Origin: a virus
Lineage: Duplodnaviria > Heunggongvirae > Uroviricota > Caudoviricetes
IMG/VR virus record: IMGVR_UViG_2690316345_000022
Reading direction: 5' to 3' (one strand)
DNA: 30,122 nt
The stretch's first letter is position 1, and each line of letters starts with the position of its first letter. Made by a program: the position numbers and the translations under genes. Below the pieces are notes generated by a model that saw only the letters and a list, made by a program, of their open reading frames with translations, had not been told where the DNA came from and searched no databases. Of this stretch, positions 1 to 23,573 are shown piece after piece.

Positions 1-276
1 ATGAGTATTCGTATTGAAATTGGCGAACGTTATGTCGTTACCAGTGACAGCTTCCAGTTTATTCTCCACGAGAAAAAGAGAGCGGAAAGCGGTAAAAACG
101 CCGGTCAGGAATGGCTGGCGGTGGTTGGTTATTACCCGAAATTAAGCCAGCTCGTTTCCGGCCTGATGCATCACGATATTCTGACCGGAAGCGCAAAGTC
201 TTTTGCTGATTTAAACGCGCAGGTTGAGCAACTCAGCAGGCGTTGTTCAGAGGCTTTTGGCTCATATGGCCGTTAA
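1..276 (+). CDS. Small early-operon hypothetical protein upstream of gene A (possibly 5'-truncated by window edge)
   Basis: ORF track 1..276, 91 aa; overlaps start of A as in P2 early operon (orf82/83-like position). Function unknown. Confidence 0.5.
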   Translation: MSIRIEIGERYVVTSDSFQFILHEKKRAESGKNAGQEWLAVVGYYPKLSQLVSGLMHHDILTGSAKSFADLNAQVEQLSRRCSEAFGSYGR

Positions 277-2551
277 AGCCTCCGGGCGTTTTGTCCCTCC
301 GTCAGCATTTGCTGCAGGCACCGGTAAGGCGTTTACCGGTGTTTATGCATGGAACGCGCCACGCGAGGCTGTCGGGCGCGAAAGACCCCTTACACGTGAC
401 GAGATGCGTCAGGTGCAAGGTGTTTTATCCACGATTAACCGCCTGCCTTACTTTTTGCGCTCGCTGTTTACTTCACGCTATGACTACATCCGTCGCAATA
501 AAAGCCCGGTGCACGGGTTTTATTTCCTCACATCCACTTTTCAGCGTCGTTTATGGCCGCGCATTGAGCGTGTGAATCAGCGCCATGAAATGAACACCGA
601 CGCGTCGTTACTGTTTCTGGCAGAGCGTGACCACTATGCGCGCCTGCCGGGAATGAATGACAAGGAGCTGAAAAAGTTTGCCGCCCGTATCTCATCGCAG
701 CTTTTCATGATGTATGAGGAACTCTGCGATGCATGGGTTGATGCGCATGGTGAAAAAGAATCGCTGTTTACGGATGAGGCGCAGGCTCACCTGTATGGTC
801 ATGTTGCTGGCGCTGCACGTGCTTTCAATATTTCCCCGCTCTACTGGAAAAAATACCGTAAAGGACAGATGACCACGAGGCAGGCATATTCTGCCATTGC
901 CCGCCTGTTTAACGATGAGTGGTGGACTCATCAGCTTAAAGGCCAGCGTATGCGCTGGCATGAGGCGTTACTGATTGCTGTCGGGGAGGTCAATAAAGAC
1001 CGTTCTCCTTATGCCAGTAAACATGCCATTCGTGATGTGCGTGCGCGCCGCCAGGCAAATCTGGAATTTCTTAAATCGTGTGACCTCGAAAACAGGGAAA
1101 CCGGCGAACGCATCGACCTTATCAGTAAGGTGATGGGCAGTATTTCTAATCCTGAAATTCGCCGGATGGAGCTGATGAACACCATTGCCGGTATTGAGCG
1201 TTACGCCGCCGCAGAGGGTGATGTGGGGATGTTTATCACGCTGACCGCGCCGTCAAAGTATCACCCGACACGTCAGGTCGGAAAAGGCGAAAGTAAAACC
1301 GTTCAGCTTAATCACGGCTGGAACGATGAGGCATTTAATCCAAAGGATGCGCAGCGTTATCTCTGCCGTATCTGGAGCCTGATGCGCACGGCATTCAAGG
1401 ATAATGATTTACAGGTCTACGGTTTGCGAGTCGTCGAGCCACACCACGACGGAACGCCGCACTGGCATATGATGCTTTTTTGTAATCCACGCCAGCGTAA
1501 CCAGATTATCGAAATCATGCGTCGCTACGCGCTCAAAGAGGATGGCGACGAAAGAGGAGCTGCGCGAAACCGTTTTCAGGCAAAACACCTTAACCGGGGT
1601 GGTGCTGCGGGGTATATCGCTAAATACATCTCAAAAAATATCGACGGCTATGCACTGGATGGTCAGCTCAATAACGATACCGGCAGGCCGCTTAAAGACA
1701 CTGCCGCGGCTGTTACCGCATGGGCGTCAACGTGGCGCATTCCGCAATTTAAAACGGTTGGACTGCCGACAATGGGGGCTTACCGTGAACTACGCAAATT
1801 GCCTCGCGGCGTCAGCATAGCTGATGAGTTTGACGAACGCGTCGAGGCTGCACGCGCTGCCGCAGACAGTGGCGATTTTGCGCTGTATATCAGCGCGCAG
1901 GGTGGGGCAAATGTCCCGCGCGATTGTCAGACTGTCAGGGTCGCCCGTAGCCCGTCGGATGACGTTAACGAGTACGAGGAAGAGGTCGAGAGAGTGGTCG
2001 GTATTTACGCGCCGCATCTCGGCGCGCGTCATATTCATATCACCAGAACCACGGACTGGCGCATTGTGCCGAAAGTGCCGGTCGTTGAGCCTTTGACTTT
2101 AAAAAGCGGCATCGCCGCGCCTCGGAGTCCTGTCAATAACTGTGGAAAGCTCACCGGTGGTGATACTTCGTTACCGGCTCCCACACCTTCTGAACACGCC
2201 GCAGCAGTGCTTAATCTGGTTGATGACGGTGTTATCGAATGGAATGACCCGGAGGTCGTGAGGGCGCTCAGGGGCGCATTAAAACACGACCTGAGAACAC
2301 CAAACCGTCAGCAAAGAAACGGAAGCCCGTTAAAACCACATGAAATTGCACCATCGGCCAGACTGACCCGGTCGGAACGAATGCAAATTACCCGTATCCG
2401 CGTTGACCTTGCTCAGAACGGTATCAGGCCGCAGCGATGGGAGCTTGAGGCGCTGGCGCGTGGCGCGACCGTAAATTACGACGGGAAAAAATTCACGTAT
2501 CCGGTCGCTGATGAGTGGCCGGGATTCTCAACAGTAATGGAGTGGACATGA
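266..2551 (+). CDS. A: Replication initiation protein gpA (rolling-circle nicking endonuclease)
   Basis: ORF 224..2551; internal ATG at 266 gives MAVKASGRFVPP..., 761 aa, the P2 gpA length; the longer TTG/ATG extension in the track is probably not used. Confidence 0.92.
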   Translation: MAVKASGRFVPPSAFAAGTGKAFTGVYAWNAPREAVGRERPLTRDEMRQVQGVLSTINRLPYFLRSLFTSRYDYIRRNKSPVHGFYFLTSTFQRRLWPRIERVNQRHEMNTDASLLFLAERDHYARLPGMNDKELKKFAARISSQLFMMYEELCDAWVDAHGEKESLFTDEAQAHLYGHVAGAARAFNISPLYWKKYRKGQMTTRQAYSAIARLFNDEWWTHQLKGQRMRWHEALLIAVGEVNKDRSPYASKHAIRDVRARRQANLEFLKSCDLENRETGERIDLISKVMGSISNPEIRRMELMNTIAGIERYAAAEGDVGMFITLTAPSKYHPTRQVGKGESKTVQLNHGWNDEAFNPKDAQRYLCRIWSLMRTAFKDNDLQVYGLRVVEPHHDGTPHWHMMLFCNPRQRNQIIEIMRRYALKEDGDERGAARNRFQAKHLNRGGAAGYIAKYISKNIDGYALDGQLNNDTGRPLKDTAAAVTAWASTWRIPQFKTVGLPTMGAYRELRKLPRGVSIADEFDERVEAARAAADSGDFALYISAQGGANVPRDCQTVRVARSPSDDVNEYEEEVERVVGIYAPHLGARHIHITRTTDWRIVPKVPVVEPLTLKSGIAAPRSPVNNCGKLTGGDTSLPAPTPSEHAAAVLNLVDDGVIEWNDPEVVRALRGALKHDLRTPNRQQRNGSPLKPHEIAPSARLTRSERMQITRIRVDLAQNGIRPQRWELEALARGATVNYDGKKFTYPVADEWPGFSTVMEWT

Positions 2552-3003
2552 TGGCAAAAATTCACGAGGTAAAGCTGCACGCAAAATATTTCGACCTTGT
2601 ACTGGAAGGAAAGAAACGCGCAGAGTTTCGGAAAAATGACCGTAATTATGAGCGTGGGGACACGTTGATTTTGCATGAATGGGGGCAGGGTGTGTATACG
2701 GGGCGAAAGGTTGAAGCCCGGATAACAGATGTTACTGACCTGTCAGACTGGCTGGAAGATTATGTCTTGCTAAGTATTGATCTGCTTAATACAGGCGCAT
2801 ATGAGATTGTGAACTGGAAAGAACTTAGTGAGCGTGGGCTGGTATTCAGAATTAATCATGAAATTATGCATCAGCTCGGCCTTGCTGTTATGTATGAACC
2901 AGAGACAGGGATGTCTGGCGGGGCAATGGTTGCCACGGATGGAGCATGGAACTATTCAGATGAACAGATGGAGCGTGCACAGCAAAACGGGTGGCTTGGA
3001 TAA
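2548..3003 (+). CDS. ASCH/PUA-like (DUF3850-like) domain protein
   Basis: ORF 2515..3003; likely start MMAKIHEVKLHAKYFDLVLEGKKRAEFRKNDRNYERGDTLILHEW, which resembles the ASCH/DUF3850 N-terminal signature; overlaps A stop (translational coupling). Confidence 0.6.
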   Translation: MMAKIHEVKLHAKYFDLVLEGKKRAEFRKNDRNYERGDTLILHEWGQGVYTGRKVEARITDVTDLSDWLEDYVLLSIDLLNTGAYEIVNWKELSERGLVFRINHEIMHQLGLAVMYEPETGMSGGAMVATDGAWNYSDEQMERAQQNGWLG

Positions 3004-3209
3004 TGCACAGAATACCAGGCGAGATACCGCAGCATAAAACTAAAAATATCAAGCTGATGGCTATTGTTCAGCGTTTACAGCGGATTATGGTCAACGAAAA
3101 TTTGACGCCCGATGAGCTGGTCGGGTGTGCCGAAATAGTCCGGGATAATTACGGGCGGTTTAACCATATCGGTAAGTCCAGAGTTACGCCACCACCACGC
3201 AGACGATAG
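2991..3209 (+). CDS. Hypothetical small protein
   Basis: ORF track only (72 aa); no recognisable motifs; overlaps end of preceding ORF by 13 nt. Confidence 0.3.
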   Translation: MAWIMHRIPGEIPQHKTKNIKLMAIVQRLQRIMVNENLTPDELVGCAEIVRDNYGRFNHIGKSRVTPPPRRR

Positions 3210-3259
3210 AGAACGCCGCCAGTCATGAAACTTGTTTTCAGGGCTGACGGCGTTGAACA

Positions 3260-3588
3260 ACGAGCGAAGCGAGGCGTTAGTTATGACTATGATGGATTTA
3301 TTATATAAAATACATATGGTTATGTTATTTGGGTTACTTCGGTACTTTGTAAATAATTTGGGTTAATGATGATAAGAATTAAGAATATTAGTAGCATGGT
3401 ATTGAGAGTATTATGTTGTGAACATAAAAGAGTGTATTTGCAGAAAAGCATCAGCTCACTTGGGGTAAAGTTATGCGTACATAAGGTGCAGGAGTTACAT
3501 TCGAAGCACATTCTTATCATTTGCTAAAACGCTCGAGATTTTTGGAAGATGCCGTTATACTCTATCGGAGGATAAATCGGAGACAAAA
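3260..3588. promoter_or_regulatory. Strongly AT-rich non-coding leader upstream of the methyltransferase gene; likely promoter region and left boundary of acquired cargo
   Basis: Abrupt drop in GC after 3210 (long A/T tracts such as ttatataaaatacatatggttatgttattt); GGAG-like RBS (tcggagg) about 25 nt upstream of the ATG at 3589. Confidence 0.35.
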
Positions 3589-4626
3589 ATGGCTGTAAAA
3601 GTTGTTGATCTTTTTTGTGGTGCTGGCGGTCTTACACATGGCCTAAGACAGGCCGGATTAAATGTAGTCGCTGGTATTGATATAGAGAGTGCATGCAGGG
3701 TTGCTTATGAAAGCAATAATAGTGCGCTTTTTATTGAAAAAGATATTTCTCTGGTAACCAAAGACGAGCTTGAAGGTCTATTTGAAGGGGCACAAGTTAA
3801 GGTATTGGCGGGATGTGCACCGTGCCAACCCTTTTCTAGGTATACGCAGGGGCGTGATAAGAAAAATGACAAAAAATGGCCTCTTCTTTACGAATTTGAA
3901 CGTTTAATTCGGGATGTTAATCCAGAGATTGTGACAATGGAAAATGTTCCTGATGTGACGAAGCATTCAGTTTACAGTGATTTCTATAATAGCTTAGAGT
4001 CATTAGGCTATTATGTTTGGGCAGGGACAGTTGAATGTGTAGATTATGGCATTCCACAAAATAGAGTAAGGCATGTATTATTAGCATCTAAATTTGCACC
4101 ACTTTCCTTTGTAAGACCAAAAGTACAAAAAACGGTAACGGTGAAAGAATGCATTGGTGGATTACCTCCATTAGAGGCAGGCCAGACGGATCCAGTTGAC
4201 CCTTTACATAAAGCAAGTAAATTAAGTGACATTAATCTTAAACGTATTGCTTGTTCAAAGCCTGGTGGAACGTGGCGAGATTGGCCGATAGAGTTGGTTG
4301 CGTCATGCCATATAAAGAAAAGTGGGCAAGGTTATGCCAGTGTCTATGGTCGTATGGACTGGGATAAACCAAGTCCTACCATCACCACGCTGTGTTATGG
4401 TTTTGGGAATGGCAGATTTGGCCACCCAGAGCAGAATCGTGCAATTTCTTTGAGAGAGGCAGCCCTGTTACAAACCTTTCCAAGTGATTACATTTTTACT
4501 GCACCTAATGAGAAGATCTCTGTGAAGAACGTTGGCAGGATGATCGGTAATGCCGTGCCGGTAAAATTAGGGAAGGTTATAGGTGAGTCAATTATAACCC
4601 ACCTAAAAGAGAATAATATAATTTAA
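3589..4626 (+). CDS. DNA (cytosine-5)-methyltransferase
   Basis: 345 aa with canonical C5-MTase motifs: I DLFCGAGG, IV GCAPCQPFS (catalytic Cys), VI ENVPDV, VIII QNRVR, X GNAVPVKLG. Target specificity unknown. Confidence 0.9.
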   Translation: MAVKVVDLFCGAGGLTHGLRQAGLNVVAGIDIESACRVAYESNNSALFIEKDISLVTKDELEGLFEGAQVKVLAGCAPCQPFSRYTQGRDKKNDKKWPLLYEFERLIRDVNPEIVTMENVPDVTKHSVYSDFYNSLESLGYYVWAGTVECVDYGIPQNRVRHVLLASKFAPLSFVRPKVQKTVTVKECIGGLPPLEAGQTDPVDPLHKASKLSDINLKRIACSKPGGTWRDWPIELVASCHIKKSGQGYASVYGRMDWDKPSPTITTLCYGFGNGRFGHPEQNRAISLREAALLQTFPSDYIFTAPNEKISVKNVGRMIGNAVPVKLGKVIGESIITHLKENNII

Positions 4627-5354
4627 GCCTGTAAACTTGATGATCGTATGTATAAGCGATCATCAAGATATTTTTGTATATTTTCTAGGATTTCTTCGAG
4701 GTAATAAAACACTTCATTTTTAAGAAGTTCAAGATTATCAATGGAAGTATCTTGGCCCTTGTTCAGAAAGGATTCTGAGCCATGCGCTAAAGCATTTCTG
4801 GCATTTTTTATATTTACTAAATTTCCACCATTATGAGTTTTTAAGCGATTTGTTTGAGAGGAAAATCCATATATATTAGCTACATCTCTAATTTTCTGTG
4901 CATCTACATTTCCAGAAAAAAGAGGGTTTTTATCTGCTTTGACTTGTTTTTTATGCTCCTCTAACCATTTTTTTAATACTAGTTTTGCAACATCGCCTTG
5001 TGAAAAATCCATGTCACTAACCATATGATGATCTAATTTTTTTAAGGCAAGTTTTGTTAAGCTTTCACATATCTTATCAATGCAAAGATCATTACATGAA
5101 TTGAGTTCGTCATGTATATCTTCAATAGCATTAGATATAGTGGCTTCTATTAGGTTATACAATATAATAAACGCATTTGCTTTAAGTATATGCGTCATTT
5201 CGATATCAATGTTACGAAGTTTGTACTCATCAGAATCACGATCTTTATAAGAGAATGATGGCCTCTCATCAATAATGAATTTAACAAAATCAAAATATTT
5301 TTCTATATCTTCTTTTCTTTCAGAGAATAATATTTTGCTGTTCATGGTGACCAC
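4623..5354 (-). CDS. HEPN-like domain protein (predicted nuclease), downstream partner of the DUF262 gene
   Basis: 243-aa ORF; predicted GTG start 6 nt after the DUF262 stop with GAGGAG RBS overlapping that stop; C-terminal ARNALAHG matches the HEPN Rx4-6H motif; very AT-rich. Confidence 0.6.
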   Translation of the reverse strand: MVTMNSKILFSERKEDIEKYFDFVKFIIDERPSFSYKDRDSDEYKLRNIDIEMTHILKANAFIILYNLIEATISNAIEDIHDELNSCNDLCIDKICESLTKLALKKLDHHMVSDMDFSQGDVAKLVLKKWLEEHKKQVKADKNPLFSGNVDAQKIRDVANIYGFSSQTNRLKTHNGGNLVNIKNARNALAHGSESFLNKGQDTSIDNLELLKNEVFYYLEEILENIQKYLDDRLYIRSSSLQA

Positions 5355-5360
5355 GGATAA

Positions 5361-6485
5361 TTACTCCTCACTGTCATCTTGAACAGTATCTTGAGTCTGT
5401 ACACCTAAAAGTTTATCTCTTACATATTCAATTCGTGCTTTAACTTTAGGTTTTGAGTTCGAGGCATCAGATCTAGTATGTTTAATGAACTCTACAGAGT
5501 TAAGCCATTCAGTTACTGGGGCTGGTGTTATGCTTGGATTAGTTTGTAAGGCTAAAGTTGAACCAACAGCCAGTGCTTCAAAACGTATTCTTGGTACAGT
5601 ATTTGCCGTTTCGTTTTTTCTGAAACCATAGGGGAAATTCTGTTTTACAAATCTGCACATATCTTGAAATTGTTTAGCTAATTTGTTTTCTTGTTCAGCG
5701 GAAAATGTATTATTTCTATTATCAAGATATTGAGTTAGGAATGTGTCAACACTTTTTTCAAAGTGGAGATAGTTATCACAATATGCGAAATATCTAAGAA
5801 CTAATTCAGGATATTCTCCTCGATTGATTCGAGCATCGTTTAGGGGACATATTTCTCTAAACAATGGAAGTTCAGACAGACTATTAATGAAATCCAGGAA
5901 AGGACCATCATTGCTGCCTTGTCGCTGCTCCATTGTTGTAAGTCTTATTCCGCCTGTATTTAATCTATCGAAAATCTCTCTCCTTGCTTCTTCATCACAT
6001 AATTCAGTGAGTTCAATCATTCTAATAGTTTTCCTGTCGAATCTAAGCTTACGCGCAGGTGTGAAGTCAGAGTATTTGAATCCGTTAGCTGAAGTTAGTT
6101 TTTTTAATCCAGTAAGAGTAAATTTATCATTTAGGAAATGATAAAGTGTTCTAATCCTCTGGCTGCCATCAACGATTTCCAATCGTCCATCGTCATTTCC
6201 GATATCGGCGACAAATACATATGGAATAGGAATGTTTAGTAAAAGCGATTCAATGAATCTTGATTTTTGTATATTGTTCCAAACAAACTCCCTTTGATAG
6301 TCAGGAATATATAGCTCAGCTTGATCGGTTTCTAATCCTTTCTGAAACTTGTCAACAATAACACTAACAGGAAATTCTCTGATTTGGTGATCGGTTATTT
6401 TTTGCATGGATTTGATCTGGCTATCCAGTTCAATTTTATCTTCTTCTGTGATCACTTGTTCAGGCTGTCTTGGGACTCTTGCCAT
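5361..6485 (-). CDS. DUF262 / ParB-like (GmrSD N-terminal-type) domain protein
   Basis: ORF 5361..6512; likely ATG at 6485 (MARVPRQPEQ...) preceded by AAGGAG RBS; contains IVDGSQRIRTL, a variant of the DGQQR motif of DUF262; no obvious DUF1524/HNH motif seen by eye. Confidence 0.75.
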   Translation of the reverse strand: MARVPRQPEQVITEEDKIELDSQIKSMQKITDHQIREFPVSVIVDKFQKGLETDQAELYIPDYQREFVWNNIQKSRFIESLLLNIPIPYVFVADIGNDDGRLEIVDGSQRIRTLYHFLNDKFTLTGLKKLTSANGFKYSDFTPARKLRFDRKTIRMIELTELCDEEARREIFDRLNTGGIRLTTMEQRQGSNDGPFLDFINSLSELPLFREICPLNDARINRGEYPELVLRYFAYCDNYLHFEKSVDTFLTQYLDNRNNTFSAEQENKLAKQFQDMCRFVKQNFPYGFRKNETANTVPRIRFEALAVGSTLALQTNPSITPAPVTEWLNSVEFIKHTRSDASNSKPKVKARIEYVRDKLLGVQTQDTVQDDSEE

Positions 6486-6628
6486 GTGGTTTCTCCTTAT
6501 GCTTATTTGCAATAAGTTGCATTAGTTTGCATGTGTAATTTTATACTGATTTAATCCCACAAACTCTTTACATGCAAGGGGTTGAAGCTTAAATGCAACT
6601 GCATTAAAACCGTCCCATGAAGCGGGCG

Positions 6629-6647
6629 GGCGAGGCGGGGAAAGCAC
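6629..6647. other. cos: cos site (19-nt cohesive-end sequence of P2-type phages)
   Basis: Exact string GGCGAGGCGGGGAAAGCAC, recalled as the P2 cohesive end, lies between the accessory cargo and the 3' end of Q, the expected position. Confidence 0.7.
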
Positions 6648-6789
6648 TGCGCGCTGGCGGTGGTGCTGATTTTATTTTTTCAGCGTCTGAGCGCGTCGTG
6701 ATGGCGTTTAGATTGTTCGCCGGGGGCGTTGGTGTGTATGCGGGCTGTTTTGCGCGGTGGTGAGCGTGTGAGGGCGTGATGACGGGGTG

Positions 6790-6813
6790 TAAAAAAGCCG
6801 CCCGCAGGCGGCG
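6790..6813 (-). terminator. Rho-independent terminator downstream of Q (minus strand)
   Basis: On the minus strand, directly after the Q stop: GCCGCC-TGCG-GGCGGC hairpin followed by TTTTTTA. Confidence 0.6.
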
Positions 6814-6817
6814 ATGT

Positions 6818-7852
6818 TCAGCCGTTGTCAGTGTCCAGTGAGTAGTTTTTAAAGCGGATGACCTCCTGACCGAGCCAGCCGTTTATTTCCCGAATCCTGT
6901 CCTGTAGCGGGATAAGCTCATTGCGGACAAAGACCTTTGCCACTTTCTCAATATCGCCCAGCGACCCGACGTTCTCCGGCTTGCCGCCCATCAACTGAAA
7001 GGGGATGCGGTGCGCGTCCAGCAGGTCAGCGGCGCTGGCTTTTTTGATATTAAAAAAATCGTCCTTCGTCGCCACTTCACTGAGGGGGATAATTTTAATG
7101 CCGTCGGCTTTCCCCTGCGGGGCATAGAGAAACAGATTTTTAAAGTTGTTGCGGCCTTTCGACTTCACCATGTTTTCGCGGAGCATTTCGATATCGTTGC
7201 GATCCTGCACGGCATCGGTGACGTACATGATGTATCCGGCATGTGCGCCGTTTTCGTAATACTTGCGGCGGAACAGCGTGGCCGACTCATTCAGCCAGGC
7301 AGAGTTAAGGGCGCTGAGATATTCCGGCAGGCCGTACAGCTCCTGATTAATATCCGGCTCCAGCAGGTGAAACACGGAGCCGGGCGCGAAAGGTGTCGGC
7401 TCATGGAAGGACGGCACCCACCAGTAAACATCCTCTTCCACGCCACGGCGGGTATATTTTGCCGGTGAGGTTTCCAGTCTGATGACCTTACCGGTGGTGC
7501 TGTAACGCTTTTCCAGAAACGCATTACCGAACACCAGAAAATCCAGCACAAAGCGGCTGAAATCCTGCTGAGAAAGCCACGGGTGTGGGATAAACGTTGA
7601 GGCCAGAATATTACGTTTGACGTAAATCGGTGAGCTGTGATGCACGGCAGCACGCAGGCTTTTTGCCAGACCGGTAAAGCTGACCGGTGGCTCATACCAT
7701 CTGCCGTTACTGATGCACTCGACGTAATCCAGAATGTCACGGCGGTCGAGTACCGGCACCGGCTCACCAAAGGTGAATGCCTCCATTTTCGGGGCGCTGG
7801 CGGTCATTTTTTTTGCCGCAGGTTGCGGTGTTTTCCCTTTTTTCTTGCTCAT
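6818..7852 (-). CDS. Q: Portal protein gpQ
   Basis: 344 aa, the P2 gpQ length; start overlaps P stop (ATGA). Confidence 0.93.
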   Translation of the reverse strand: MSKKKGKTPQPAAKKMTASAPKMEAFTFGEPVPVLDRRDILDYVECISNGRWYEPPVSFTGLAKSLRAAVHHSSPIYVKRNILASTFIPHPWLSQQDFSRFVLDFLVFGNAFLEKRYSTTGKVIRLETSPAKYTRRGVEEDVYWWVPSFHEPTPFAPGSVFHLLEPDINQELYGLPEYLSALNSAWLNESATLFRRKYYENGAHAGYIMYVTDAVQDRNDIEMLRENMVKSKGRNNFKNLFLYAPQGKADGIKIIPLSEVATKDDFFNIKKASAADLLDAHRIPFQLMGGKPENVGSLGDIEKVAKVFVRNELIPLQDRIREINGWLGQEVIRFKNYSLDTDNG

Positions 7853-9624
7853 CAGTAAAACTCCAGAATGGTGGATGTCAGCGGGGTGCTGATACCGGCG
7901 GTGAGTGGCTCATTTAACAGGGCGTGCATGGTCGCCCAGGCGAGGTCGGCGTGGCTGGCTTCCTCGCTGCGGCTGGCCTCATAGGTGGCGCTGCGTCCGC
8001 TGCTGGTCATGGTCTTGCGGATAGCCATAAACGAGCTGGTGATGTCGGTGGCGCTGACGTCATATTCCAGACAGCCACGGCGGATAACGTCTTTTGCCTT
8101 GAGCACCATTGCAGTTTTCATTTCCGGCGTGTAGCGGATATCGCGCGCGGCGGGATAGAACGAGCGCACGAGCTGGAACACGCCGACACCGAGGCCGGTG
8201 GCATCAATACCGATGTATTCAACGTTATATTTTTCGGTGAGTTTGCGGATGGATTCAGCCTGGGTGGCAAAGTCCATGCCTTTCCACTGGTGACGCTCAA
8301 GTATTCTGAATTTGCCACCGGCCACCACCGGCGGTGCCAGTACCACGCATCCGGCGCTGTCTCCACGGTGTGACGGGTCGTAACCAATCCATACCGGACG
8401 TGAGCCGAACGGATTGGCGGCAAACGGCGCATAGTCTTCCCATTCTTCCAGCGTGTCGACCATGCAGCGTTGCAGCTCCTCGAACGGGAACACCGATGCC
8501 TTGTCGTCAACAAATTCACACATGAACAGGTTTTTAAAATCGTCGGCGCTGTTTTCGCGTTTGAGCTGCTCAATGTCGAACAGCGTGCAGCCGCCTTTCA
8601 GGGCGTCCTCAATGGTGACAATCTGTCGCCACTGGCCGTCCGCACAGAGAAGCCCACCGGCAAGGGCGTTATGACTGACGTCGATTTCCACACGTTCGGC
8701 GGCGCTGGCGCGTCCCCGGTTAAACAGTTCACCCGACCAGAACGGGTAGGCGTCGTGCGCCAGCGTGGACGGGGTGGAGAAATAGGTCGAACGCAGGTGA
8801 CTCTGTGAGGCCATACCTGATGCCACCTTACGCAGTACCTGAAAATTCGGGATCCAGAAAATCTCGTCGACGTACAGGTCGCCGTTATGGCTCTGCGCGG
8901 TGTTGGAGTTGGTGCCGAGAAAAATCAGTTTTGCGCCGTTATTGCCCAGGACAATCGGGTCACCGGTCAGGTCAACGTCAACCAGCCGGGCAAAGGCGAT
9001 GATGTATTCGCGGAACACATACGCCTGCGTTTTACTGGCCGACAGAAAAATCTGGTTATGACCGGTTTTCAGGGCGCGCAGCAGCGCCTCGCGGGAAAAA
9101 TAAAACGTCGCGCCAATCTGGCGGGATTTCAGGATATCGCGGATGCGGTGCTCAAGCCCGGCGCGATACCAGTGCAACTGATATTCGAAAGACTGCTCAA
9201 AGAAAATCTGCTCCAGCTTTTCGATGGCCTCGTCACTGAAAAAATTCTTTTTCGGTTTGCGACGCCCGCCTTTGTTGCGGTTAGCGACGTTCGGATTAAG
9301 GTCTGCCTCGTTGCCGGTCTGACTGTAACGGTTGACCCGTGCCAGCCGTTCAATCTGGCGTCCGAGCAGGTCAATTTCCTTGAAGTCACCGCCGGTTTTC
9401 TGCGGTTTGATGATGAGCTGGGTCAGCCGCGCTTCCAGACTCATTTCGACACGGCTGATGGGGGCAACGCTGTCCCAGCCGTCGCGCTGTTTCCAGCTCT
9501 GCACCGTCGGGCGTTTCATCTGCAACATGGCGGCAATCTGCGGCACGGAAAACCCCTGCCAGTACAGCAGCGCCGCCTGACGACGCGGGTCGTGTAAAAG
9601 AGTGGTGTCTGTGGTGATGGTCAT
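7852..9624 (-). CDS. P: Terminase large (ATPase) subunit gpP
   Basis: ORF 7852..9654; internal ATG at 9624 (MTITTDTTLL...) gives 590 aa as in P2 gpP; GAGG RBS upstream. Confidence 0.92.
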   Translation of the reverse strand: MTITTDTTLLHDPRRQAALLYWQGFSVPQIAAMLQMKRPTVQSWKQRDGWDSVAPISRVEMSLEARLTQLIIKPQKTGGDFKEIDLLGRQIERLARVNRYSQTGNEADLNPNVANRNKGGRRKPKKNFFSDEAIEKLEQIFFEQSFEYQLHWYRAGLEHRIRDILKSRQIGATFYFSREALLRALKTGHNQIFLSASKTQAYVFREYIIAFARLVDVDLTGDPIVLGNNGAKLIFLGTNSNTAQSHNGDLYVDEIFWIPNFQVLRKVASGMASQSHLRSTYFSTPSTLAHDAYPFWSGELFNRGRASAAERVEIDVSHNALAGGLLCADGQWRQIVTIEDALKGGCTLFDIEQLKRENSADDFKNLFMCEFVDDKASVFPFEELQRCMVDTLEEWEDYAPFAANPFGSRPVWIGYDPSHRGDSAGCVVLAPPVVAGGKFRILERHQWKGMDFATQAESIRKLTEKYNVEYIGIDATGLGVGVFQLVRSFYPAARDIRYTPEMKTAMVLKAKDVIRRGCLEYDVSATDITSSFMAIRKTMTSSGRSATYEASRSEEASHADLAWATMHALLNEPLTAGISTPLTSTILEFY

Positions 9625-9797
9625 GAATACCTCGCCGTGATGAATACACGGCAAGGCTACTGAGTCGCGCCCCGCGATTCGCTAAGGTGCTGTTGTGTCA
9701 GTGATAAGCCATCCGGGACTGATGGCGGAGGATGCGCATCGTCGGGAAACTGATGCCGACATGTGACTCCTCTAATCACTATTCAGGACTCCTGACA
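9625..9797. promoter_or_regulatory. Divergent late-promoter region between P (leftward) and O (rightward)
   Basis: Intergenic position between divergent late operons as in P2 (Ogr-dependent PP/PO); specific -10/-35 or activator sites not confidently identified by eye. Confidence 0.4.
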
Positions 9798-18496: not shown

Positions 18497-20707
18497 ATGA
18501 GCACAAAATTCAGAACCGTTATCACCACTGCCGGTGCAGCAAAGCTGGCAGCGGCAACCGCACCGGGAGGGCGGAAGGTCAACATTACCACGATGGCCGT
18601 CGGGGATGGCGGTGGTAAATTGCCTGTCCCGGATGCCGGACAGACCGGGCTTATCCACGAAGTCTGGCGACATACGCTGAACAAAATCAGCCAGGACAAA
18701 CGAAACAGTAATTATATTATCGCAGAGCTGGTTATTCCGCCGGAGGTGGGCGGTTTCTGGATGCGTGAGCTTGGCCTGTACGATGATGCGGGAACATTAA
18801 TTGCCGTGGCGAACATGGCCGAAAGTTATAAGCCAGCTCTCGCCGAAGGCTCAGGGCGTTCGCAGACCTGTCGCATGGTCATCATCGTCAGCAGTGTGGC
18901 CTCAGTGGAGCTGACCATTGACACCACAACAGTGATGGCGACGCAGGATTACGTTGATGACAAAATTGCAGAGCACGAACAGTCACGACGTCACCCGGAC
19001 GCCTCGCTGACCGCCAAAGGTTTTACTCAGTTAAGCAGTGCGACCAACAGCACGTCTGAAACACTGGCCGCAACGCCGAAAGCGGTAAAGGCCGCGTATG
19101 ACCTTGCTAACGGGAAATATACTGCGCAGGATGCCACCACAGCGCGAAAAGGTCTTGTCCAGCTCAGTAGTGCCACCAACAGCACGTCTGAAACGCTCGC
19201 TGCAACACCAAAAGCGGTAAAAGCAGCATATGACCTGGCTAACGGGAAATATACCGCACAGGACGCCACCACCGCGCGAAAAGGCCTTGTCCAGCTAAGT
19301 AGCGTCACCAACAGCGATTCTGAAACGCTTGCGGCAACGCCAAAGGCGGTTAAGACAGCGTATGACCTTGCTAACGGGAAATACACTGCACAGGATGCCA
19401 CCACAGCGCGAAAAGGGCTTGTCCAGCTCAGTAGCGCCACCAACAGTGATTCTGAAACCCTCGCGGCAACGCCAAAAGCAGTGAAGTCTGCCTATGACAA
19501 TGCTGAAAAACGTCTTCAGAAAGATCAGAACGGTGCGGATATTCCGGGAAAGGATACCTTCACGAAAAATATCGGTGCCTGTCGTGCTTATAGCGGCGCT
19601 TTGAGCACTGAAGCCGGAAACTGGACAACCGCTCAGTTTATTGACTGGCTAGAGTCTCAGGGAGCCTTTAATCATCCTTACTGGATGTGCAAGTGTTCCT
19701 GGTCATATGGTAATAACAAAATTATTACCGATACTGACTGTGGGACTATTCATCTTGCAGGTTGCGTGATTGAGGTTATGGGCGTTAAAGCAGCAATGAC
19801 CATTCGTGTGACCACTCCGAGTACATCAAGCGGTGGTGGTACCACCAGTGCGCAATTCACGTATATCAATCACGGAGCTGATTATGCGCCGGGCTGGCGA
19901 CGTGACTACAATACGAAAAATAAGCAACCGGCTTTTGCATTAGGGAAAACAGGAAATACGGTTGCAAATAATAAAGCGGTAGGATGGAACTGGGACAGTG
20001 GTGCTTATTGTGCACAGGATGGCGGAGCATCAAAAATGGTGCTGCATTTTTACACGGGTGAGGGAAGTTGTCCGGCAATGCAGTTTCTTGTGGATTATAA
20101 AAACAGGGGGATTTTTTACAGGTCGGCACGTGATGGGTATGGATTTGAGGCTGACTGGTCAGAGTTTTATACCACATCACGAAAGCCAACACCTGCGGAT
20201 ATTCTTGCTCTGGCATTATCAGGCGGAAGCATGTCAGGCAGCATAAAATTTATCAATGATGCCTTCCTGATTTGGGAAAGAAACACTGACTGGGCGAAAA
20301 TTGGATTTAAAAATGATTCAGATGCTGATTCTGACTCATACATGTGGTTTGAAACTGGTGATAATGGCAATGAATATTTTAAATGGCGCATCAGGTCTGG
20401 CAGCACAACAAAAGACCTGATGACGCTTAAGTCTGATGCACTTCGGGTTACCGGGCAGGTGATACCATCAAATTTCAGCAATTTTGACTCCCGCTATGTC
20501 CGGGATATCCGGCTTGGTGGTGCCGCCACATACAAACCTGCGAACAATGGCATGACATGGACACATCAGGCACCGTCCGGGTGTGTATATACCGGCATTA
20601 TTGTTCAGGATACCGGCTCAAACTCTGCCGATAACATTGGTGGCGTATATTACAGACCGGTTCAGAAATACATTAACGGGACGTGGTACAACGTGGCGCA
20701 GGTATAA
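18497..20707 (+). CDS. H: Tail fibre protein gpH (repeat-expanded, divergent C-terminal receptor-binding region)
   Basis: 736 aa; conserved N-terminal region, internal tandem repeats, divergent C-terminal half. Confidence 0.9.
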   Translation: MSTKFRTVITTAGAAKLAAATAPGGRKVNITTMAVGDGGGKLPVPDAGQTGLIHEVWRHTLNKISQDKRNSNYIIAELVIPPEVGGFWMRELGLYDDAGTLIAVANMAESYKPALAEGSGRSQTCRMVIIVSSVASVELTIDTTTVMATQDYVDDKIAEHEQSRRHPDASLTAKGFTQLSSATNSTSETLAATPKAVKAAYDLANGKYTAQDATTARKGLVQLSSATNSTSETLAATPKAVKAAYDLANGKYTAQDATTARKGLVQLSSVTNSDSETLAATPKAVKTAYDLANGKYTAQDATTARKGLVQLSSATNSDSETLAATPKAVKSAYDNAEKRLQKDQNGADIPGKDTFTKNIGACRAYSGALSTEAGNWTTAQFIDWLESQGAFNHPYWMCKCSWSYGNNKIITDTDCGTIHLAGCVIEVMGVKAAMTIRVTTPSTSSGGGTTSAQFTYINHGADYAPGWRRDYNTKNKQPAFALGKTGNTVANNKAVGWNWDSGAYCAQDGGASKMVLHFYTGEGSCPAMQFLVDYKNRGIFYRSARDGYGFEADWSEFYTTSRKPTPADILALALSGGSMSGSIKFINDAFLIWERNTDWAKIGFKNDSDADSDSYMWFETGDNGNEYFKWRIRSGSTTKDLMTLKSDALRVTGQVIPSNFSNFDSRYVRDIRLGGAATYKPANNGMTWTHQAPSGCVYTGIIVQDTGSNSADNIGGVYYRPVQKYINGTWYNVAQV
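19013..19500 (+). repeat. Tandem 132-bp (44-codon) coding repeats inside tail-fibre gene H, about 3.7 copies
   Basis: Protein repeat ARKGLVQLSS(A/V)TNS(T/D)SETLAATPKAVK(A/T/S)AYDLANGKYTAQDATT recurs with period 132 nt (e.g. gcgcgaaaagg at about 19145, 19277 and 19409). Confidence 0.85.
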
Positions 20708-20710
20708 TTT

Positions 20711-21238
20711 ATGCAGCATTTGATAAATATAACGGCAGGTAATCCAAAAACGGTTGAACAATATCAATTGACAAAGGACTTTGATGTTGTCTGGTTTTTT
20801 TCAGAAGATGGTAAGAACTGGTACGAAGAACAAAAGTATTTTGCTGATGACACGATAAAAATAGCGTACGACAAAGATAATATTATCCGCTATGTGGAAA
20901 AGGATGTGACAGCTATCAGACCAGATGGATTAAGTGTTGTTGAAGTGCCGGATATTACTGCTAATCGACGGGCGGACATTTCAGGGAACTGGATGTTTAA
21001 GGATGGTACAGTGATTAAACGAATTTATACGGCAGAGGAATTGCAGCAGCAGGCAGAAAATCGGAAAGCCAGACTTCTTGCAGATGCTGAATCCGTGATT
21101 TTGCCGCTGGAGCGCGCGGTCAGACTGAACATGGCAACAGATGAGGAGCGTAGCCGACTGGAAGCATGGGAACGCTACAGCGTTCTGGTCAGTCGTGTGG
21201 ATCCTGCAAATCCTGAATGGCCGGAAATGCCGCAATAA
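20711..21238 (+). CDS. G: Tail fibre assembly chaperone gpG
   Basis: 175 aa directly after H; position as P2 gpG. Confidence 0.85.
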
Positions 21239-21459
21239 GTTGTATGATCTCTGGAGTGAGCAAACGTATCTATGGCACAGAGTAAAGCCTAATCTGACAG
21301 GCCGCTCTGTGTCTGGAGTAGATTTTAGTAAAGCATTATTTTATTAGTGCAAATTCTAATCAATACATTTTATGTATATGATATCCTGCAGACTTTAATG
21401 ACTTGGTTTAGGCTAACCAGATAACACTGAAGGAATATTTTTGATAATTAAGGTACGGT

Positions 21460-22053
21460 ATGTTTACTAAGCGACGATTAAAAAATATTAACTGGGAGGC
21501 AAGTTCAGTGATTCTTGCTATGGTTCTCTTTGTTGGAAATATATTTTATACAAATCATCGTGATGATATAAGCATGGAGGCTGAGAGGGACAGTATCAGA
21601 ACAATGTTTGCATATGAAATCGCTAATAACCATCGCGCTCTCACTTTTCTTGATAAAACGAGACATATTGGCTTTGACGAAAATTCGGAGCATTTTGTTG
21701 GCGAGCCTTTTGCCATTAATGTCAAATCATTAGGGGGGCCTCGCTTACAGATTGCATTAAACCAGACTGATAAAGTGTTTAAATCCTACTTCAGCGAATT
21801 AAGTAAGCTTGATAAAGAGGATGTTACTCTTCTTATGGACTATTACCATGAGCAAAGCATCCTGCTGGAGCGTGTAAAATCTACGTTACAGAAGATGAAA
21901 AGTGGTAATGATATTAAAGTTGATATTGATGGTTACTTATTAGAAGAACACTTCATGAATGAGCTTAATCTTTCTAATATTTTGCTTAAACGCTATAGCC
22001 ATTTGTTGTCACAATACGCTAAAGAACATAAAACAAAAGATTTACATAATTGA
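21460..22053 (+). CDS. Hypothetical membrane-anchored protein in the G-FI accessory slot (P2 Z/fun position)
   Basis: 197-aa ORF in an AT-rich island; N-terminus MFTKRRLKNINWEASSVILAMVLFVGNIFY is a basic stretch followed by a hydrophobic helix; AAGG RBS upstream; no recognisable catalytic motifs. Confidence 0.6.
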   Translation: MFTKRRLKNINWEASSVILAMVLFVGNIFYTNHRDDISMEAERDSIRTMFAYEIANNHRALTFLDKTRHIGFDENSEHFVGEPFAINVKSLGGPRLQIALNQTDKVFKSYFSELSKLDKEDVTLLMDYYHEQSILLERVKSTLQKMKSGNDIKVDIDGYLLEEHFMNELNLSNILLKRYSHLLSQYAKEHKTKDLHN

Positions 22054-22382
22054 TAATCTGCTAATGGTTATTCATGGGGTAACTATGTTTTATATGTAAT
22101 CCAACTCAGATGAATTATTGATTCTGGATAATAACCGCAGAGCGGCATATACCCTGACAGGCAAATGTCCGCTTCTTGTTCAAAGCAGACTGTCAGATTT
22201 GATAACTTTTGGGCTATGTAAATTGTCAGTCGGAAAATGAGTGAGTTCAAATCAGGACTGGCGGGCGAATTGCCCGCATTTTCTTTATCTGTTGTTTCAT
22301 CCACTGACCAACCAGGTCAAATAGCGTCTCATGCACTGCCCAACAGAAAATAGTTGCACCCATTAACCACGGAGTTAAACGG

Positions 22383-23573
22383 ATGAGTGACTATCATCAC
22401 GGCGTGCAGGTGCTGGAGATTAACGACGGCACCCGCGTCATTTCCACCGTATCCACTGCCATTGTCGGCATGGTCTGCACGGCCAGCGATGCGGATGCGG
22501 AAACCTTCCCCCTCAATAAACCTGTGCTGATTACCAATGTGCAGAGCGCAATTGCAAAGGCCGGTAAAAAAGGCACGCTGGCGGCATCGTTGCAGGCCAT
22601 CGCTGACCAGTCAAAACCGGTCACCGTTGTCGTGCGCGTGGAAGACGGCAGCGGCGACGACGAGGAAACGAAACTCGCGCAGACCGTTTCCAATATCATC
22701 GGCACCACCGACGAAAACGGTCAGTACACCGGACTGAAAGCCCTGCTGGCGGCGGAGTCGGTAACCGGTGTTAAACCGCGCATTCTCGGTGTGCCGGGAC
22801 TGGACACCAAAGAGGTTGCCGTCGCACTGGCATCAGTCTGTCAGAAGCTGCGCGCTTTCGGGTATATCAGCGCATGGGGCTGTAAAACCATTTCCGAGGT
22901 GAAAGCCTACCGCCAGAATTTCAGCCAGCGTGAGCTGATGGTCATCTGGCCGGATTTCCTCGCATGGGATACGGTCACCAGTACCACCGCCACCGCGTAT
23001 GCCACCGCCCGTGCGCTGGGTCTGCGCGCTAAAATCGACCAGGAGCAGGGCTGGCATAAAACGCTGTCCAATGTCGGGGTGAACGGTGTTACCGGCATCA
23101 GCGCCTCTGTATTCTGGGATTTGCAGGAGTCCGGCACTGATGCTGACCTGCTTAACGAGTCAGGCGTCACAACGCTGATTCGCCGTGACGGTTTCCGCTT
23201 CTGGGGTAACCGTACCTGCTCTGATGACCCGCTGTTCCTCTTTGAAAACTACACCCGCACCGCGCAGGTGCTGGCCGATACGATGGCTGAGGCGCACATG
23301 TGGGCGGTGGACAAGCCCATCACCGCAACGCTGATTCGCGACATCGTTGACGGCATCAATGCCAAATTCCGAGAGCTGAAAACAAACGGCTATATCGTGG
23401 ATGCGACCTGCTGGTTCAGCGAAGAATCCAACGATGCGGAAACCCTCAAGGCCGGAAAACTGTATATCGACTACGACTATACACCGGTGCCTCCTCTTGA
23501 AAACCTGACCCTGCGCCAGCGTATTACCGATAAATACCTGGCAAATCTGGTCACTTCGGTTAACAGCAATTAA
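22383..23573 (+). CDS. FI: Contractile tail sheath protein gpFI
   Basis: 396 aa; length and position as in P2. Confidence 0.93.
   Translation: MSDYHHGVQVLEINDGTRVISTVSTAIVGMVCTASDADAETFPLNKPVLITNVQSAIAKAGKKGTLAASLQAIADQSKPVTVVVRVEDGSGDDEETKLAQTVSNIIGTTDENGQYTGLKALLAAESVTGVKPRILGVPGLDTKEVAVALASVCQKLRAFGYISAWGCKTISEVKAYRQNFSQRELMVIWPDFLAWDTVTSTTATAYATARALGLRAKIDQEQGWHKTLSNVGVNGVTGISASVFWDLQESGTDADLLNESGVTTLIRRDGFRFWGNRTCSDDPLFLFENYTRTAQVLADTMAEAHMWAVDKPITATLIRDIVDGINAKFRELKTNGYIVDATCWFSEESNDAETLKAGKLYIDYDYTPVPPLENLTLRQRITDKYLANLVTSVNSN

Follow-up and report, generated by a model that had tools for sequence, protein, structure and literature searches.

Restriction-modification gene pairs are known in convergent arrangements that have a shared or bidirectional terminator. 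A different trio, in which a ParB (DUF262) gene and a gene for a HEPN protein of the MAE_28990 family neighbour a DNA methylase gene, was listed by Anantharaman et al. (2013; PMC3710099, Table 1), in a computational description that is silent on gene orientation, on the junction and on transcription signals. PD-T4-2 (Vassallo et al. 2022, as summarised in PMC10952713) joins DUF262 and a PF18735-type HEPN in two genes, and no report was found in which a methylase is linked to it. Menshen, or NsnABC, has an ATPase (NsnB) and an effector (NsnC) directly downstream (PMC12065111). Among the places where such genes may reside, the gpA-gpQ defence hotspot of P2 is the old/tin locus (Rousset et al. 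2022, PMC9122126); the main text of that paper contains neither "methyltransferase" nor "DUF262". As for genes that meet tail to tail, the length distribution of their overlaps jumps at four bases, owing to overlaps that read CTAA, TTAA, CTAG or TTAG, and [CT]TA[AG] is the modal class (Lillo & Krakauer 2007, PMC2174442). In E. coli K-12 there are 58 convergent overlaps, and terminators are embedded at 21 of these (PMC2174442).

The window, by which is meant the whole stretch of viral DNA that was analysed (30,122 nucleotides of a member of the Caudoviricetes, IMG/VR record IMGVR_UViG_2690316345_000022), contains an overlap of this kind between a methylase gene and a facing DUF262-HEPN operon. 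The reading favoured here, at a probability of roughly 0.68, takes the shared TTAA for an inherited 4-bp overlap of an ordinary sort between two independently transcribed units, the 3' ends of which are set by embedded hairpins. The methylase gene would be one unit and the DUF262-HEPN operon the other, and together they would form a compact defence cassette in the P2 gpA-gpQ hotspot.

The cassette and its setting

The cassette lies between gpA (224-2551) and the portal gene Q (6818-7852) of a P2-like prophage, and its flanks match P2-like phages. It is rare, being present in 4 of 5426 complete E. coli genomes at a coverage of at least 80%. Directly after the portal gene Q, a terminator scan found a GC-rich terminator on the minus strand (GCCGCC-TGCG-GGCGGC and then TTTTTT, 6797..6812), which is predicted to insulate the cassette from P2 late transcription.

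The methylase gene (3589..4626, plus strand) encodes a C5 cytosine DNA methyltransferase of 345 aa. It is matched by PF00145 (C-5 methylase, E 1e-55, residues 4-336), by the PADLOC type II MTase and DrmMII models (E 1e-89 to 1e-94), by TIGR00675 (dcm) and, in the PDB, by M.HaeIII and M.HhaI, and its translation shows the motifs FCGAGG, PCQ, ENV, QNR and GNAVP. The AT-rich non-coding stretch 5' of the gene has a promoter-like site on the plus strand in a consensus scan (TCGAGA-17-TATACT, 3533..3561); this putative methylase promoter is weak, and the number of sites in the scan was not above that in shuffles.

The facing unit, on the minus strand, is an operon of the DUF262 and HEPN genes with a gap of 6-15 nt between them. 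The HEPN protein (4623..5354), which is of the MAE_28990 / RiboL-PSP type, has 243 aa from a GTG start at 5354, or 240 aa from an alternative, PGAP-style ATG at 5345. Matches were obtained to PF18737 (HEPN_MAE_28990, E 4e-20, residues 10-235), PF18735 (E 3e-7) and phrog_3846, and R186, N187 and H191 of the RNxLAH (Rx4H) motif are invariant in an alignment of 17 homologues. The DUF262 / GmrSD_N protein (ParB-like NTPase, 5361..6485) has 374 aa if it starts where PGAP places the start in relatives; the longest ORF reaches a TTG at 6512. Pfam places it in PF03235 (E 2e-28). Among the PADLOC models, NsnA (PDLC03877, E 4e-55) outscores PD-T4-2_A (PDLC04027, E 2e-34, profile positions 56-355 of 363), and the matches to HEC-05/06, SspE and BrxU-like models are weak and confined to the N-terminus. 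A sequence search of solved structures gave no match for the HEPN or the DUF262 protein.

Two stop codons in four bases

The window reads aatTTAAgcc at 4620-4629. The methylase ORF and the HEPN ORF end tail to tail in the TTAA at 4623-4626, which supplies a TAA on the plus strand (4624-4626) and another on the minus strand (4625-4623), giving a 4-bp overlap. In the ORF list of the window both frames stay open up to these stops, and the PGAP annotation at NCBI has the same 4-bp overlap in cassettes about 90% identical to this one in three E. coli genomes (for example, 2516..3553 on the plus strand facing 3550..4272 on the minus strand). The claim of the earlier note that a single TTAA provides both convergent stop codons is thereby confirmed. 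Both ORFs are genuine coding genes, with Pfam matches, hundreds of homologues and PGAP calls in relatives. The C-terminal tails of the two proteins are short and poorly conserved, the last 6-7 residues varying in both, and it is because of these tails that the overlap is confined to the two stop codons.

Why do the two genes end on the same four bases? As a class, 4-bp shared-stop overlaps are not more than chance and are no special device; the overlap itself is routine, matters little and needs no special explanation. The TTAA would be a mutationally sticky end-point, probably with no signalling role of its own. Where the stop of the partner is TAA or TAG, an ORF growing towards it would be halted at -4 in one frame; in-frame insertions or deletions in either tail would preserve the overlap, and changes in the middle two bases would break both stops together.

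Hairpins within the coding sequences

It had also been claimed that there was no room for a terminator between the convergent genes. This is wrong, since a hairpin and a U-rich run lie within the coding tail of the HEPN gene, and the hairpin is maintained by compensatory changes in P2-prophage relatives. The lack of intergenic space does not amount to the lack of a terminator: the signals would be written in the codons of the partner gene, and the non-conserved HEPN tail covaries with a conserved motif so that a hairpin is preserved.

Hairpin 1 (CTTGATGATCG-N10-CGATCATCAAG, 4636..4667, plus strand), which was found by the terminator scan, as a perfect inverted repeat and by RNA folding, begins 10 nt past the methylase stop, within the HEPN codons LDDRLYIRSSS. 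It has a stem of 11-12 bp with G-C in 5 of 12 pairs and a loop of 8-10 nt; the RNA has a dG of -17.6 kcal/mol (z -4.8), and none of 200 shuffles was as stable. The 30 kb window has only two perfect inverted repeats of 10 bp or more, hairpin 1 among them, where 0.33 would be expected. Directly 3' of the hairpin is a U-rich tract (ATATTTTTGTATATTTT, 4668..4684, plus strand), encoded by the HEPN codons ENIQKY, in which the terminator scan took AUAUUUUUGU as the U-tract that adjoins the stem on its 3' side; more distant relatives have a weaker tract, and it decays in some, such as L097 (AUACUGCUG). The evidence for covariation comes from 12 related sequences, in which 91% of cells are paired and two pairs are compensatory (G-C/A-U and U-A/C-G swaps), and the hairpin is kept down to 64% HEPN identity. 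No Rfam family matches anywhere in the window. Hairpin 1 is predicted to act on rightward transcripts, those of the methylase and of the P2 early genes, as an intrinsic terminator or as a 3' stabiliser; given its five G-C pairs and decaying U-tract, stabilisation may be its main function, or it may have a different one. As a terminator, the hairpin with its U-run (4636-4684) would stop rightward transcripts, those of the methylase and of the early operon, after about 50 nt of the HEPN gene.

On the other strand, RNA folding gave hairpin 2 (UAGGUGGGUUA-UAAU-UGACUCACCUA, 4580..4605, minus strand), which lies 17 nt past the HEPN stop, within the methylase codons GESIITHL, and has no U-tract. Its dG is -14.2 kcal/mol in the HEPN sense, compared with -7.1 in the methylase sense, and each of the two hairpins folds better on the strand of the gene that it follows. 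Across 6 relatives 98% of cells are paired, with one-sided G.U changes only and no double compensatory change. Hairpin 2 is a candidate for stabilising the 3' end of the mRNA of DUF262-HEPN. Neither the window nor its relatives have a canonical intrinsic terminator past the HEPN stop, and for this reason Rho together with hairpin 2 is proposed to form the leftward 3' end. The leftward DUF262-HEPN transcripts would enter the C-rich, G-poor antisense of the methylase gene (the HEPN-sense RNA has a C/G ratio of 1.6-2.9 over the first 120 nt past the stop), where Rho would probably terminate them and trimming would bring their ends back to hairpin 2.

With hairpins 1 and 2 as the 3' ends, the methylase and DUF262-HEPN mRNAs are predicted to share complementary 3' sequence, and they probably overlap by about 100 nt. 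The statement in the earlier note that the transcripts must read into each other thus stands in part: there is no intergenic DNA and a 3' overlap is very probable, but a terminator is not excluded by this, hairpin 1 being embedded in the HEPN gene.

Junction designs among relatives

Scans with the single HEPN protein gave one metagenomic locus and two viral loci, and profile-based scans gave more. Among 138 related loci, the trio of DUF262, HEPN and methylase genes is found in 93; the other 45 have no homologous methylase near DUF262-HEPN, and in loci without it the downstream ORFs resemble unrelated housekeeping genes, as judged by eye from the sequences only. The trio is convergent in 82 loci and has the methylase co-directional and upstream in 11. 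The -4 state occurs in 38 of the convergent loci (21 of 48 clusters at 90% identity), as TTAA in 29, TTAG in 5, CTAG in 2 and CTAA in 2; other convergent junctions have longer overlaps (11), spacers of 0-39 nt (31) or, once each, spacers of +90 and +414. It is kept across enterobacterial and cyanobacterial clades, in which the HEPN proteins are about 37% identical, and selection for a tight 3' overlap is therefore possible. Within the gene family, the -4 state is inherited and frequent but not obligatory.

The earlier note raised a coupling of expression by transcriptional interference or antisense RNA, and the sequence by itself speaks neither for nor against it. Could the overlapping 3' ends be a selected device that couples methylase and effector, through polymerase collision or through the roughly 100 nt of complementary RNA and RNase III? 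High rightward transcription, from the methylase promoter or from the lytic early operon of P2, would then lower DUF262-HEPN expression, or the reverse would hold. Such a device would fit the strong preference for the convergent order, but co-directional variants exist, and so do the loci in which DUF262-HEPN has no homologous methylase nearby. It would also fit the tightness of the junctions, 80 of 82 lying between -89 and +39, and the retention of the -4 state in two deep clades. However, sister P2 cassettes in the same hotspot separate the two stops by a spacer of 21-39 nt that holds a canonical bidirectional terminator (AAAAAAAGCCTGC-loop-GCAGGCTTTTTTTT), an arrangement that would keep collision and antisense overlap to a minimum. 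The overlap of the mRNAs is predicted even with the embedded hairpins, and the HEPN transcript has no predicted intrinsic terminator; hairpin 1, on the other hand, looks designed to stop read-through rather than to allow it. Taken together, these points make a selected coupling device unlikely. It is a little harder still to believe that the tail-to-tail packing and the reciprocal hairpins together were selected to give the two mRNAs about 100 nt of complementary and structured 3' sequence, and with it a post-transcriptional coupling, for example by RNase III cleavage of the duplex, or that read-through from the P2 early operon would shut off the effector while the phage itself goes through its lytic cycle.

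Comparison with relatives argues that the TTAA as such can be dispensed with, since sisters have a spacer with a terminator, longer overlaps or a co-directional methylase. That one putative defence trio tolerates overlapped stops, spacers with bidirectional terminators and co-directional order is useful for cloning and re-engineering.

Is hairpin 1 a transcription signal?

A further reading takes hairpin 1 for a coding by-product, a protein-binding palindrome or a recombination seam where the methylase and effector modules join, and leaves the junction with no defined terminator. The right arm does encode a conserved HEPN motif (YLDxQ/R, LD(D/G)(R/Q)), and the codons for NIQKY supply the U-run, which is degraded in relatives; the left arm, however, lies in the non-conserved HEPN tail and nevertheless changes with the right arm (D to G plus S to P). 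A palindrome that acted at the DNA level would not need the G.U pairs seen in relatives, which favour the methylase-sense RNA and would be C.A on the opposite strand; wherever a relative has hairpin 1, the methylase-sense fold is the more stable. Chance would supply a perfect 11-bp inverted repeat only about 0.3 times per 30 kb. Module exchange near the junction is suggested by the sister P2 cassettes, in which a methylase about 70% identical to that of the window accompanies a HEPN protein about 33% and a DUF262 protein about 45% identical, but P2 contexts have the hairpin, and the non-phage relatives L086/87 and L089 lack it. Past the methylase stop, the best hairpin has a median dG of -15.1 kcal/mol where the context is P2 (15 clusters), against -8.5 in the other 33 clusters; host phylum and G+C content confound this contrast (Mann-Whitney p 6e-6). 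On balance, it seems rather doubtful that hairpin 1 is something other than a transcription signal.

An annotation artefact, in which one ORF ends elsewhere or is unexpressed and the overlap is unreal, is very improbable: the last residues of both proteins are unconserved, but the frames are open to the stops, homologues in many genera have ends that lie no more than a few residues apart, and independent gene callers agree on the overlap.

Comparison with known systems

Two independently transcribed units that happen to end on one TTAA, as preferred here, can be set beside several described systems. The cassette has the same three domains as the neighbourhood of Anantharaman et al. (PMC3710099), and the Pfam family that was derived from their study has a match in its HEPN protein; a MAE_28990 HEPN with an Rx4-6H motif is adjacent to ParB/DUF262 and methylase genes, as in their description. 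With PD-T4-2 (PMC10952713) it has the two-gene DUF262 and PF18735-type HEPN architecture in common. Its DUF262 protein matches PD-T4-2_A near full length, but the HEPN protein, though matched by PF18735, has no match among the PADLOC models at E up to 10, PD-T4-2_B included.

Other candidates were set aside for want of partner genes. For Menshen, an NsnA-like DUF262 protein is present, but the sole downstream gene is that for HEPN, and there is no ATPase gene within 2551-6818. For the type IV enzymes GmrSD, BrxU and SspE, in which DUF262 is joined to or accompanied by a DUF1524 His-Me nuclease, GmrSD_N was found, but Pfam shows no DUF1524 in the cassette. The V. cholerae WASA paper, considered as a match for the Vibrio homologue, deals with other systems. 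The cassette fits no PADLOC system. It occupies the same site as the cargo of the P2 hotspot (PMC9122126), from replication gene A to portal gene Q and next to cos, and as uncharacterised cargo that goes unrecognised by PADLOC it is a reasonable candidate for defence assays.

As in convergent restriction-modification pairs, the gene for modification is set opposite a unit whose effector may be toxic, both presumably having promoters of their own, and the sister cassettes carry a classic bidirectional terminator like that of such pairs. The cassette in the window differs in that its effector consists of DUF262 and HEPN proteins, with no recognised restriction endonuclease, and in that the predicted terminator is embedded in codons.

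Compared with known 4-bp convergent overlaps (PMC2174442), the geometry is identical, with two stops in one [CT]TA[AG], and in both cases terminator signals, if any, lie within the coding sequence of the partner. Unlike the general class, this junction can be traced through one candidate defence-gene family, in four tetranucleotides and with many departures, and it has a reciprocal pair of embedded hairpins.

The cassette and its prophage

The window is a P2-like (Peduovirus) prophage adjoining fieF (ORF from 29202), with replication gene A at 224-2551 (+), the portal gene Q and terminase gene P at 6818-9654 (-), a strong terminator 3' of gene Q at 6797-6812, and the capsid, lysis and tail genes of the usual P2-like set. 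Between gpA and gpQ lies the cos-proximal defense hotspot, the home of old and tin in P2 itself (Rousset et al. 2022, PMC9122126). In DNA searches, the flanks of 2500-6850 matched P2-like phages, but the middle did not, and G+C here is 0.32-0.44, versus about 0.55 elsewhere in the window. Four genes occupy the hotspot. Two are on the plus strand, for an ASCH/DUF3850 protein (2515-3003) and a C5 cytosine methyltransferase (3589-4626); the minus strand carries those for a MAE_28990 / RiboL-PSP-type HEPN protein (4623-5354) and a DUF262 / GmrSD_N protein (5361-6485). The last three form a cassette that is rare in E. coli: of 5426 complete genomes, only 4 carry it, each in this hotspot and with some 90% identity. 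Above about 90% identity, no complete E. coli genome of the collection carries it; on metagenome contig OJJG01000063.1, HEPN is 100% identical to the window's protein and the methylase 99.7%, so that the exact lineage of the window is seen here only in a metagenome.

Elsewhere in the prophage, a second low-G+C island (about 0.40; 21238-22383) lies between the genes for tail-fiber assembly and tail sheath, where we take the Z/fun locus of P2 to be situated. Its single 197-aa ORF (21460-22053, +), with an apparently hydrophobic N-terminus, matches phrog_3829 (unknown function; E 7e-137), had no match in Pfam or PADLOC, and may be another prophage exclusion gene. In the tail-fiber gene (18497-20707), a 132-nt unit coding for a repeated ...LSSATNS(T/D)SETLAATPKAVKAAYDLANGKYTAQDATTARKGLVQ... 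segment is present in 3.5 tandem copies (19043-19498, 86% matches).

The shared stop codons

The methylase and HEPN genes converge on aatTTAAgcc (4620-4629), in which the plus-strand stop, TAA, occupies 4624-4626 and the minus-strand TAA runs from 4625 down to 4623. That TTAA supplies both stops, as the earlier note had it, is borne out by the sequence and the ORF ends: the related E. coli cassettes are annotated by PGAP with the identical overlap of 4 bp, and genes called independently on contigs from Logan, ENA and NCBI agree. The overlap is limited to the stop codons, and the tails of the methylase (...THLKENNII-stop) and of HEPN (...YIRSSSLQA-stop) are both short and poorly conserved.

Why is such an overlap so common? 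Convergent overlaps show a jump at length 4 that is due to CTAA, TTAA, CTAG and TTAG (Lillo & Krakauer 2007, PMC2174442). An ORF growing towards its partner's TAA or TAG would be stopped at -4 (a 4-bp overlap) in one of three frames, given a purine next. In-frame indels in either tail would leave the overlap unaffected, and mutation of either middle base of the tetranucleotide would destroy both stops together. A neutral cause could thereby account for the abundance of the 4-bp class.

A profile of HEPN homologues yielded 79 related loci from one-genome-per-species contigs and 44 from IMG/VR; further loci came from exact-protein look-ups, and trio composition was established by tblastn with the window's three proteins. 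The trio recurs widely. In 82 loci, including the window, DUF262 precedes HEPN and the methylase is convergent; in 11, methylase, DUF262 and HEPN are co-directional; 45 have DUF262-HEPN without a homologous methylase nearby. The convergent junctions comprise 38 overlaps of -4 (TTAA 29, TTAG 5, CTAG 2, CTAA 2), 11 longer overlaps (-12 to -89), 31 spacers of 0 to +39 nt, and single cases of +90 and +414 nt. Grouping at 90% identity gives 48 clusters: 21 are purely -4 and one is mixed, the overlap is longer in eight, and spacers measure 0-40 nt in 16 and more in two. Tight tail-to-tail packing is thus typical of the trio's gene family. Two deep clades are mostly -4, the window's enterobacterial clade and a large cyanobacterial one (HEPN about 37% identical), and both contain departures in both directions. 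The -4 junction is frequent, persists over time and is clearly dispensable. The shared stop of the window is an ordinary case of an overlap class that is well known, and it has been inherited within a family of defense genes.

Many cyanobacterial loci, mostly Microcoleus, lack a homologous methylase nearby (L016, L025, L033, L041, L048-L050, L055, L060, L065, L068, L069, L074, L076, L082); their tblastn match to DUF262 covers only about residues 21-186, and they may be decaying copies or carry a shorter DUF262 variant.

A terminator-like hairpin inside the HEPN gene

The earlier note saw no room for a terminator between the genes. This does not hold, since a perfect 11-bp inverted repeat, CTTGATGATCG-N10-CGATCATCAAG (hairpin 1, 4636-4667), followed directly by ATATTTTTGTATATTTT, begins 10 nt after the methylase stop, inside the HEPN gene. 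Its RNA folds at -17.6 kcal/mol (z -4.8; equalled by 0 of 200 shuffles). The 30-kb window has a single further perfect inverted repeat of at least 10 bp with a short loop, TTTATCATTT-AGG-AAATGATAAA (6123-6145), within the DUF262 gene; first-order random sequences lead one to expect 0.33 such repeats per window.

In hairpin 1, the right arm codes for LDDR, a conserved part of the YLDxQ/R motif, and the left arm for the non-conserved HEPN tail RSSS. The hairpin is kept down to 64% HEPN identity with both arms altered (L001, L083/84, L088, L090, L091, L092, L093, L097). Where LDDR/RSS has become LDGQ/RPP, one A-U pair is swapped for G-C and one U-A for C-G, with several G.U pairs besides. Across the alignment, 91% of cells are paired, with double changes at two pairs; the covariation score and paired fraction exceed those of all 500 shuffles, and slid controls are 11-47% paired. 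Because each G.U becomes a C.A mismatch on the opposite strand, the methylase-sense RNA is always the stabler, by 3 to 7.5 kcal/mol. From this asymmetry, we read hairpin 1 as a probable terminator or 3' stabilizer of rightward transcripts, set within the HEPN coding tail. The window and its nearest relatives have a good U-tract and more distant ones a weaker one, so terminator efficiency is uncertain. Each arm also holds a GATC (Dam) site (4642-4645, 4658-4661); these are probably incidental, since relatives' arms have GGTC, GGCC or GACC instead.

Hairpin 1 is present in P2-hotspot cassettes and absent from the non-phage relatives (L086/87, L089) and the cyanobacterial loci. A third clade with the same trio in the P2 hotspot (L101, L105-L126, L137, L138; IMG/VR P2-like prophages) has instead a 21-39 nt spacer with a canonical bidirectional terminator, e.g., AAAAAAAGCCTGCTCAGCAGGCTTTTTTTT. 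Its proteins are about 70% (methylase), 45% (DUF262) and 33% (HEPN) identical to the window's, which would reflect either very unequal rates or module exchange at the convergent junction. In the 48 cluster representatives, the 100 nt that follow the methylase stop were searched for their best hairpin; median dG was -15.1 kcal/mol in 15 P2 contexts versus -8.5 in 33 others (p 6e-6), a difference confounded with host phylum. In P2, the methylase lies downstream of the early operon (cox-B-A), and a terminator at the junction would block rightward antisense transcription of DUF262-HEPN, cos and the late genes. Shielding from early-operon transcription is a plausible reason for the hairpin in P2 contexts.

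The end of the HEPN transcript

Neither the window nor its relatives have a canonical terminator 3' of the HEPN stop. Beginning 17 nt past that stop, within methylase codons GESIITHL, lies UAGGUGGGUUA-UAAU-UGACUCACCUA (hairpin 2, 4605 down to 4580), which is without a U-tract. It is retained across the enterobacterial clade, non-phage members included, and is equally or more stable in the HEPN sense (-14.2 versus -7.1 kcal/mol in the window). Variation among relatives is one-sided, with G.U pairing preserved and no double compensation. In one sub-clade (L086, L088, L092, L093, L097), the methylase tail differs (LGEIIGKS versus LGKVIGES) and another GGTGAG serves to rebuild the hairpin. The C-terminal motif, LGKVIGESIITHL in the window and LGEIIGKSILSHL in that sub-clade, has Glu and Lys exchanged; in both versions, a GGTGAG pairs with the His-Leu codons at (C/T)CACCT, and the hairpin is thereby kept via a different arm.

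Past its stop, the HEPN-sense RNA is untranslated and C-rich (C/G 1.6-2.9 over the first 120 nt), which, against the established background on Rho, suggests that the transcript would undergo Rho-dependent termination and then be trimmed back to hairpin 2. With ends at hairpins 1 and 2, the region common to both mRNAs would extend from about 4575 to about 4675.

Does the junction couple the two genes?

The earlier note proposed that convergent transcripts, reading into each other, could couple methylase and HEPN expression by interference or antisense RNA. Part of the premise survives, as the 3' ends of the two transcripts probably overlap; the terminator-like hairpin 1 embedded in the HEPN gene suggests selection to stop read-through, not to exploit it. 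A role of the TTAA itself is made less likely by sister cassettes with bidirectional-terminator spacers, by the co-directional variants and by DUF262-HEPN pairs without a methylase. We consider coupling unlikely, and the earlier interpretation only partly right.

Comparison with known systems

Among the 58 convergent overlaps of E. coli, a Rho-independent terminator lies within the partner's coding sequence for one gene in 19 and for both in two (PMC2174442). The co-varying hairpins embedded at the present junction add a small but neat detail. A third way to combine stops with a stem-loop is seen in L005, a Thalassotalea MAG locus with junction GGAGCCTGATCAGCTCC (gap 0), where a short G+C-rich stem encloses the two TGA stops (TGA and TCA) as its loop.

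Catalytic motifs are intact in the translations of all three proteins. By analogy, the likeliest working model of the trio is restriction-modification-like, in which the methylase would act as the marker of self DNA, the DUF262 NTPase as the sensor of nucleic-acid status and HEPN as the nuclease effector. Menshen was rejected, as the cassette lacks the NsnB ATPase and NsnC (PMC12065111), and a GmrSD-type system was rejected for lack of DUF1524. Of the PADLOC models, none matches the HEPN protein; PD-T4-2_A matches the DUF262 protein. The trio matches the neighborhood described by Anantharaman et al. (PMC3710099), and its DUF262 and HEPN pair shares the architecture reported for PD-T4-2, DUF262 plus a PF18735 HEPN (PMC10952713).
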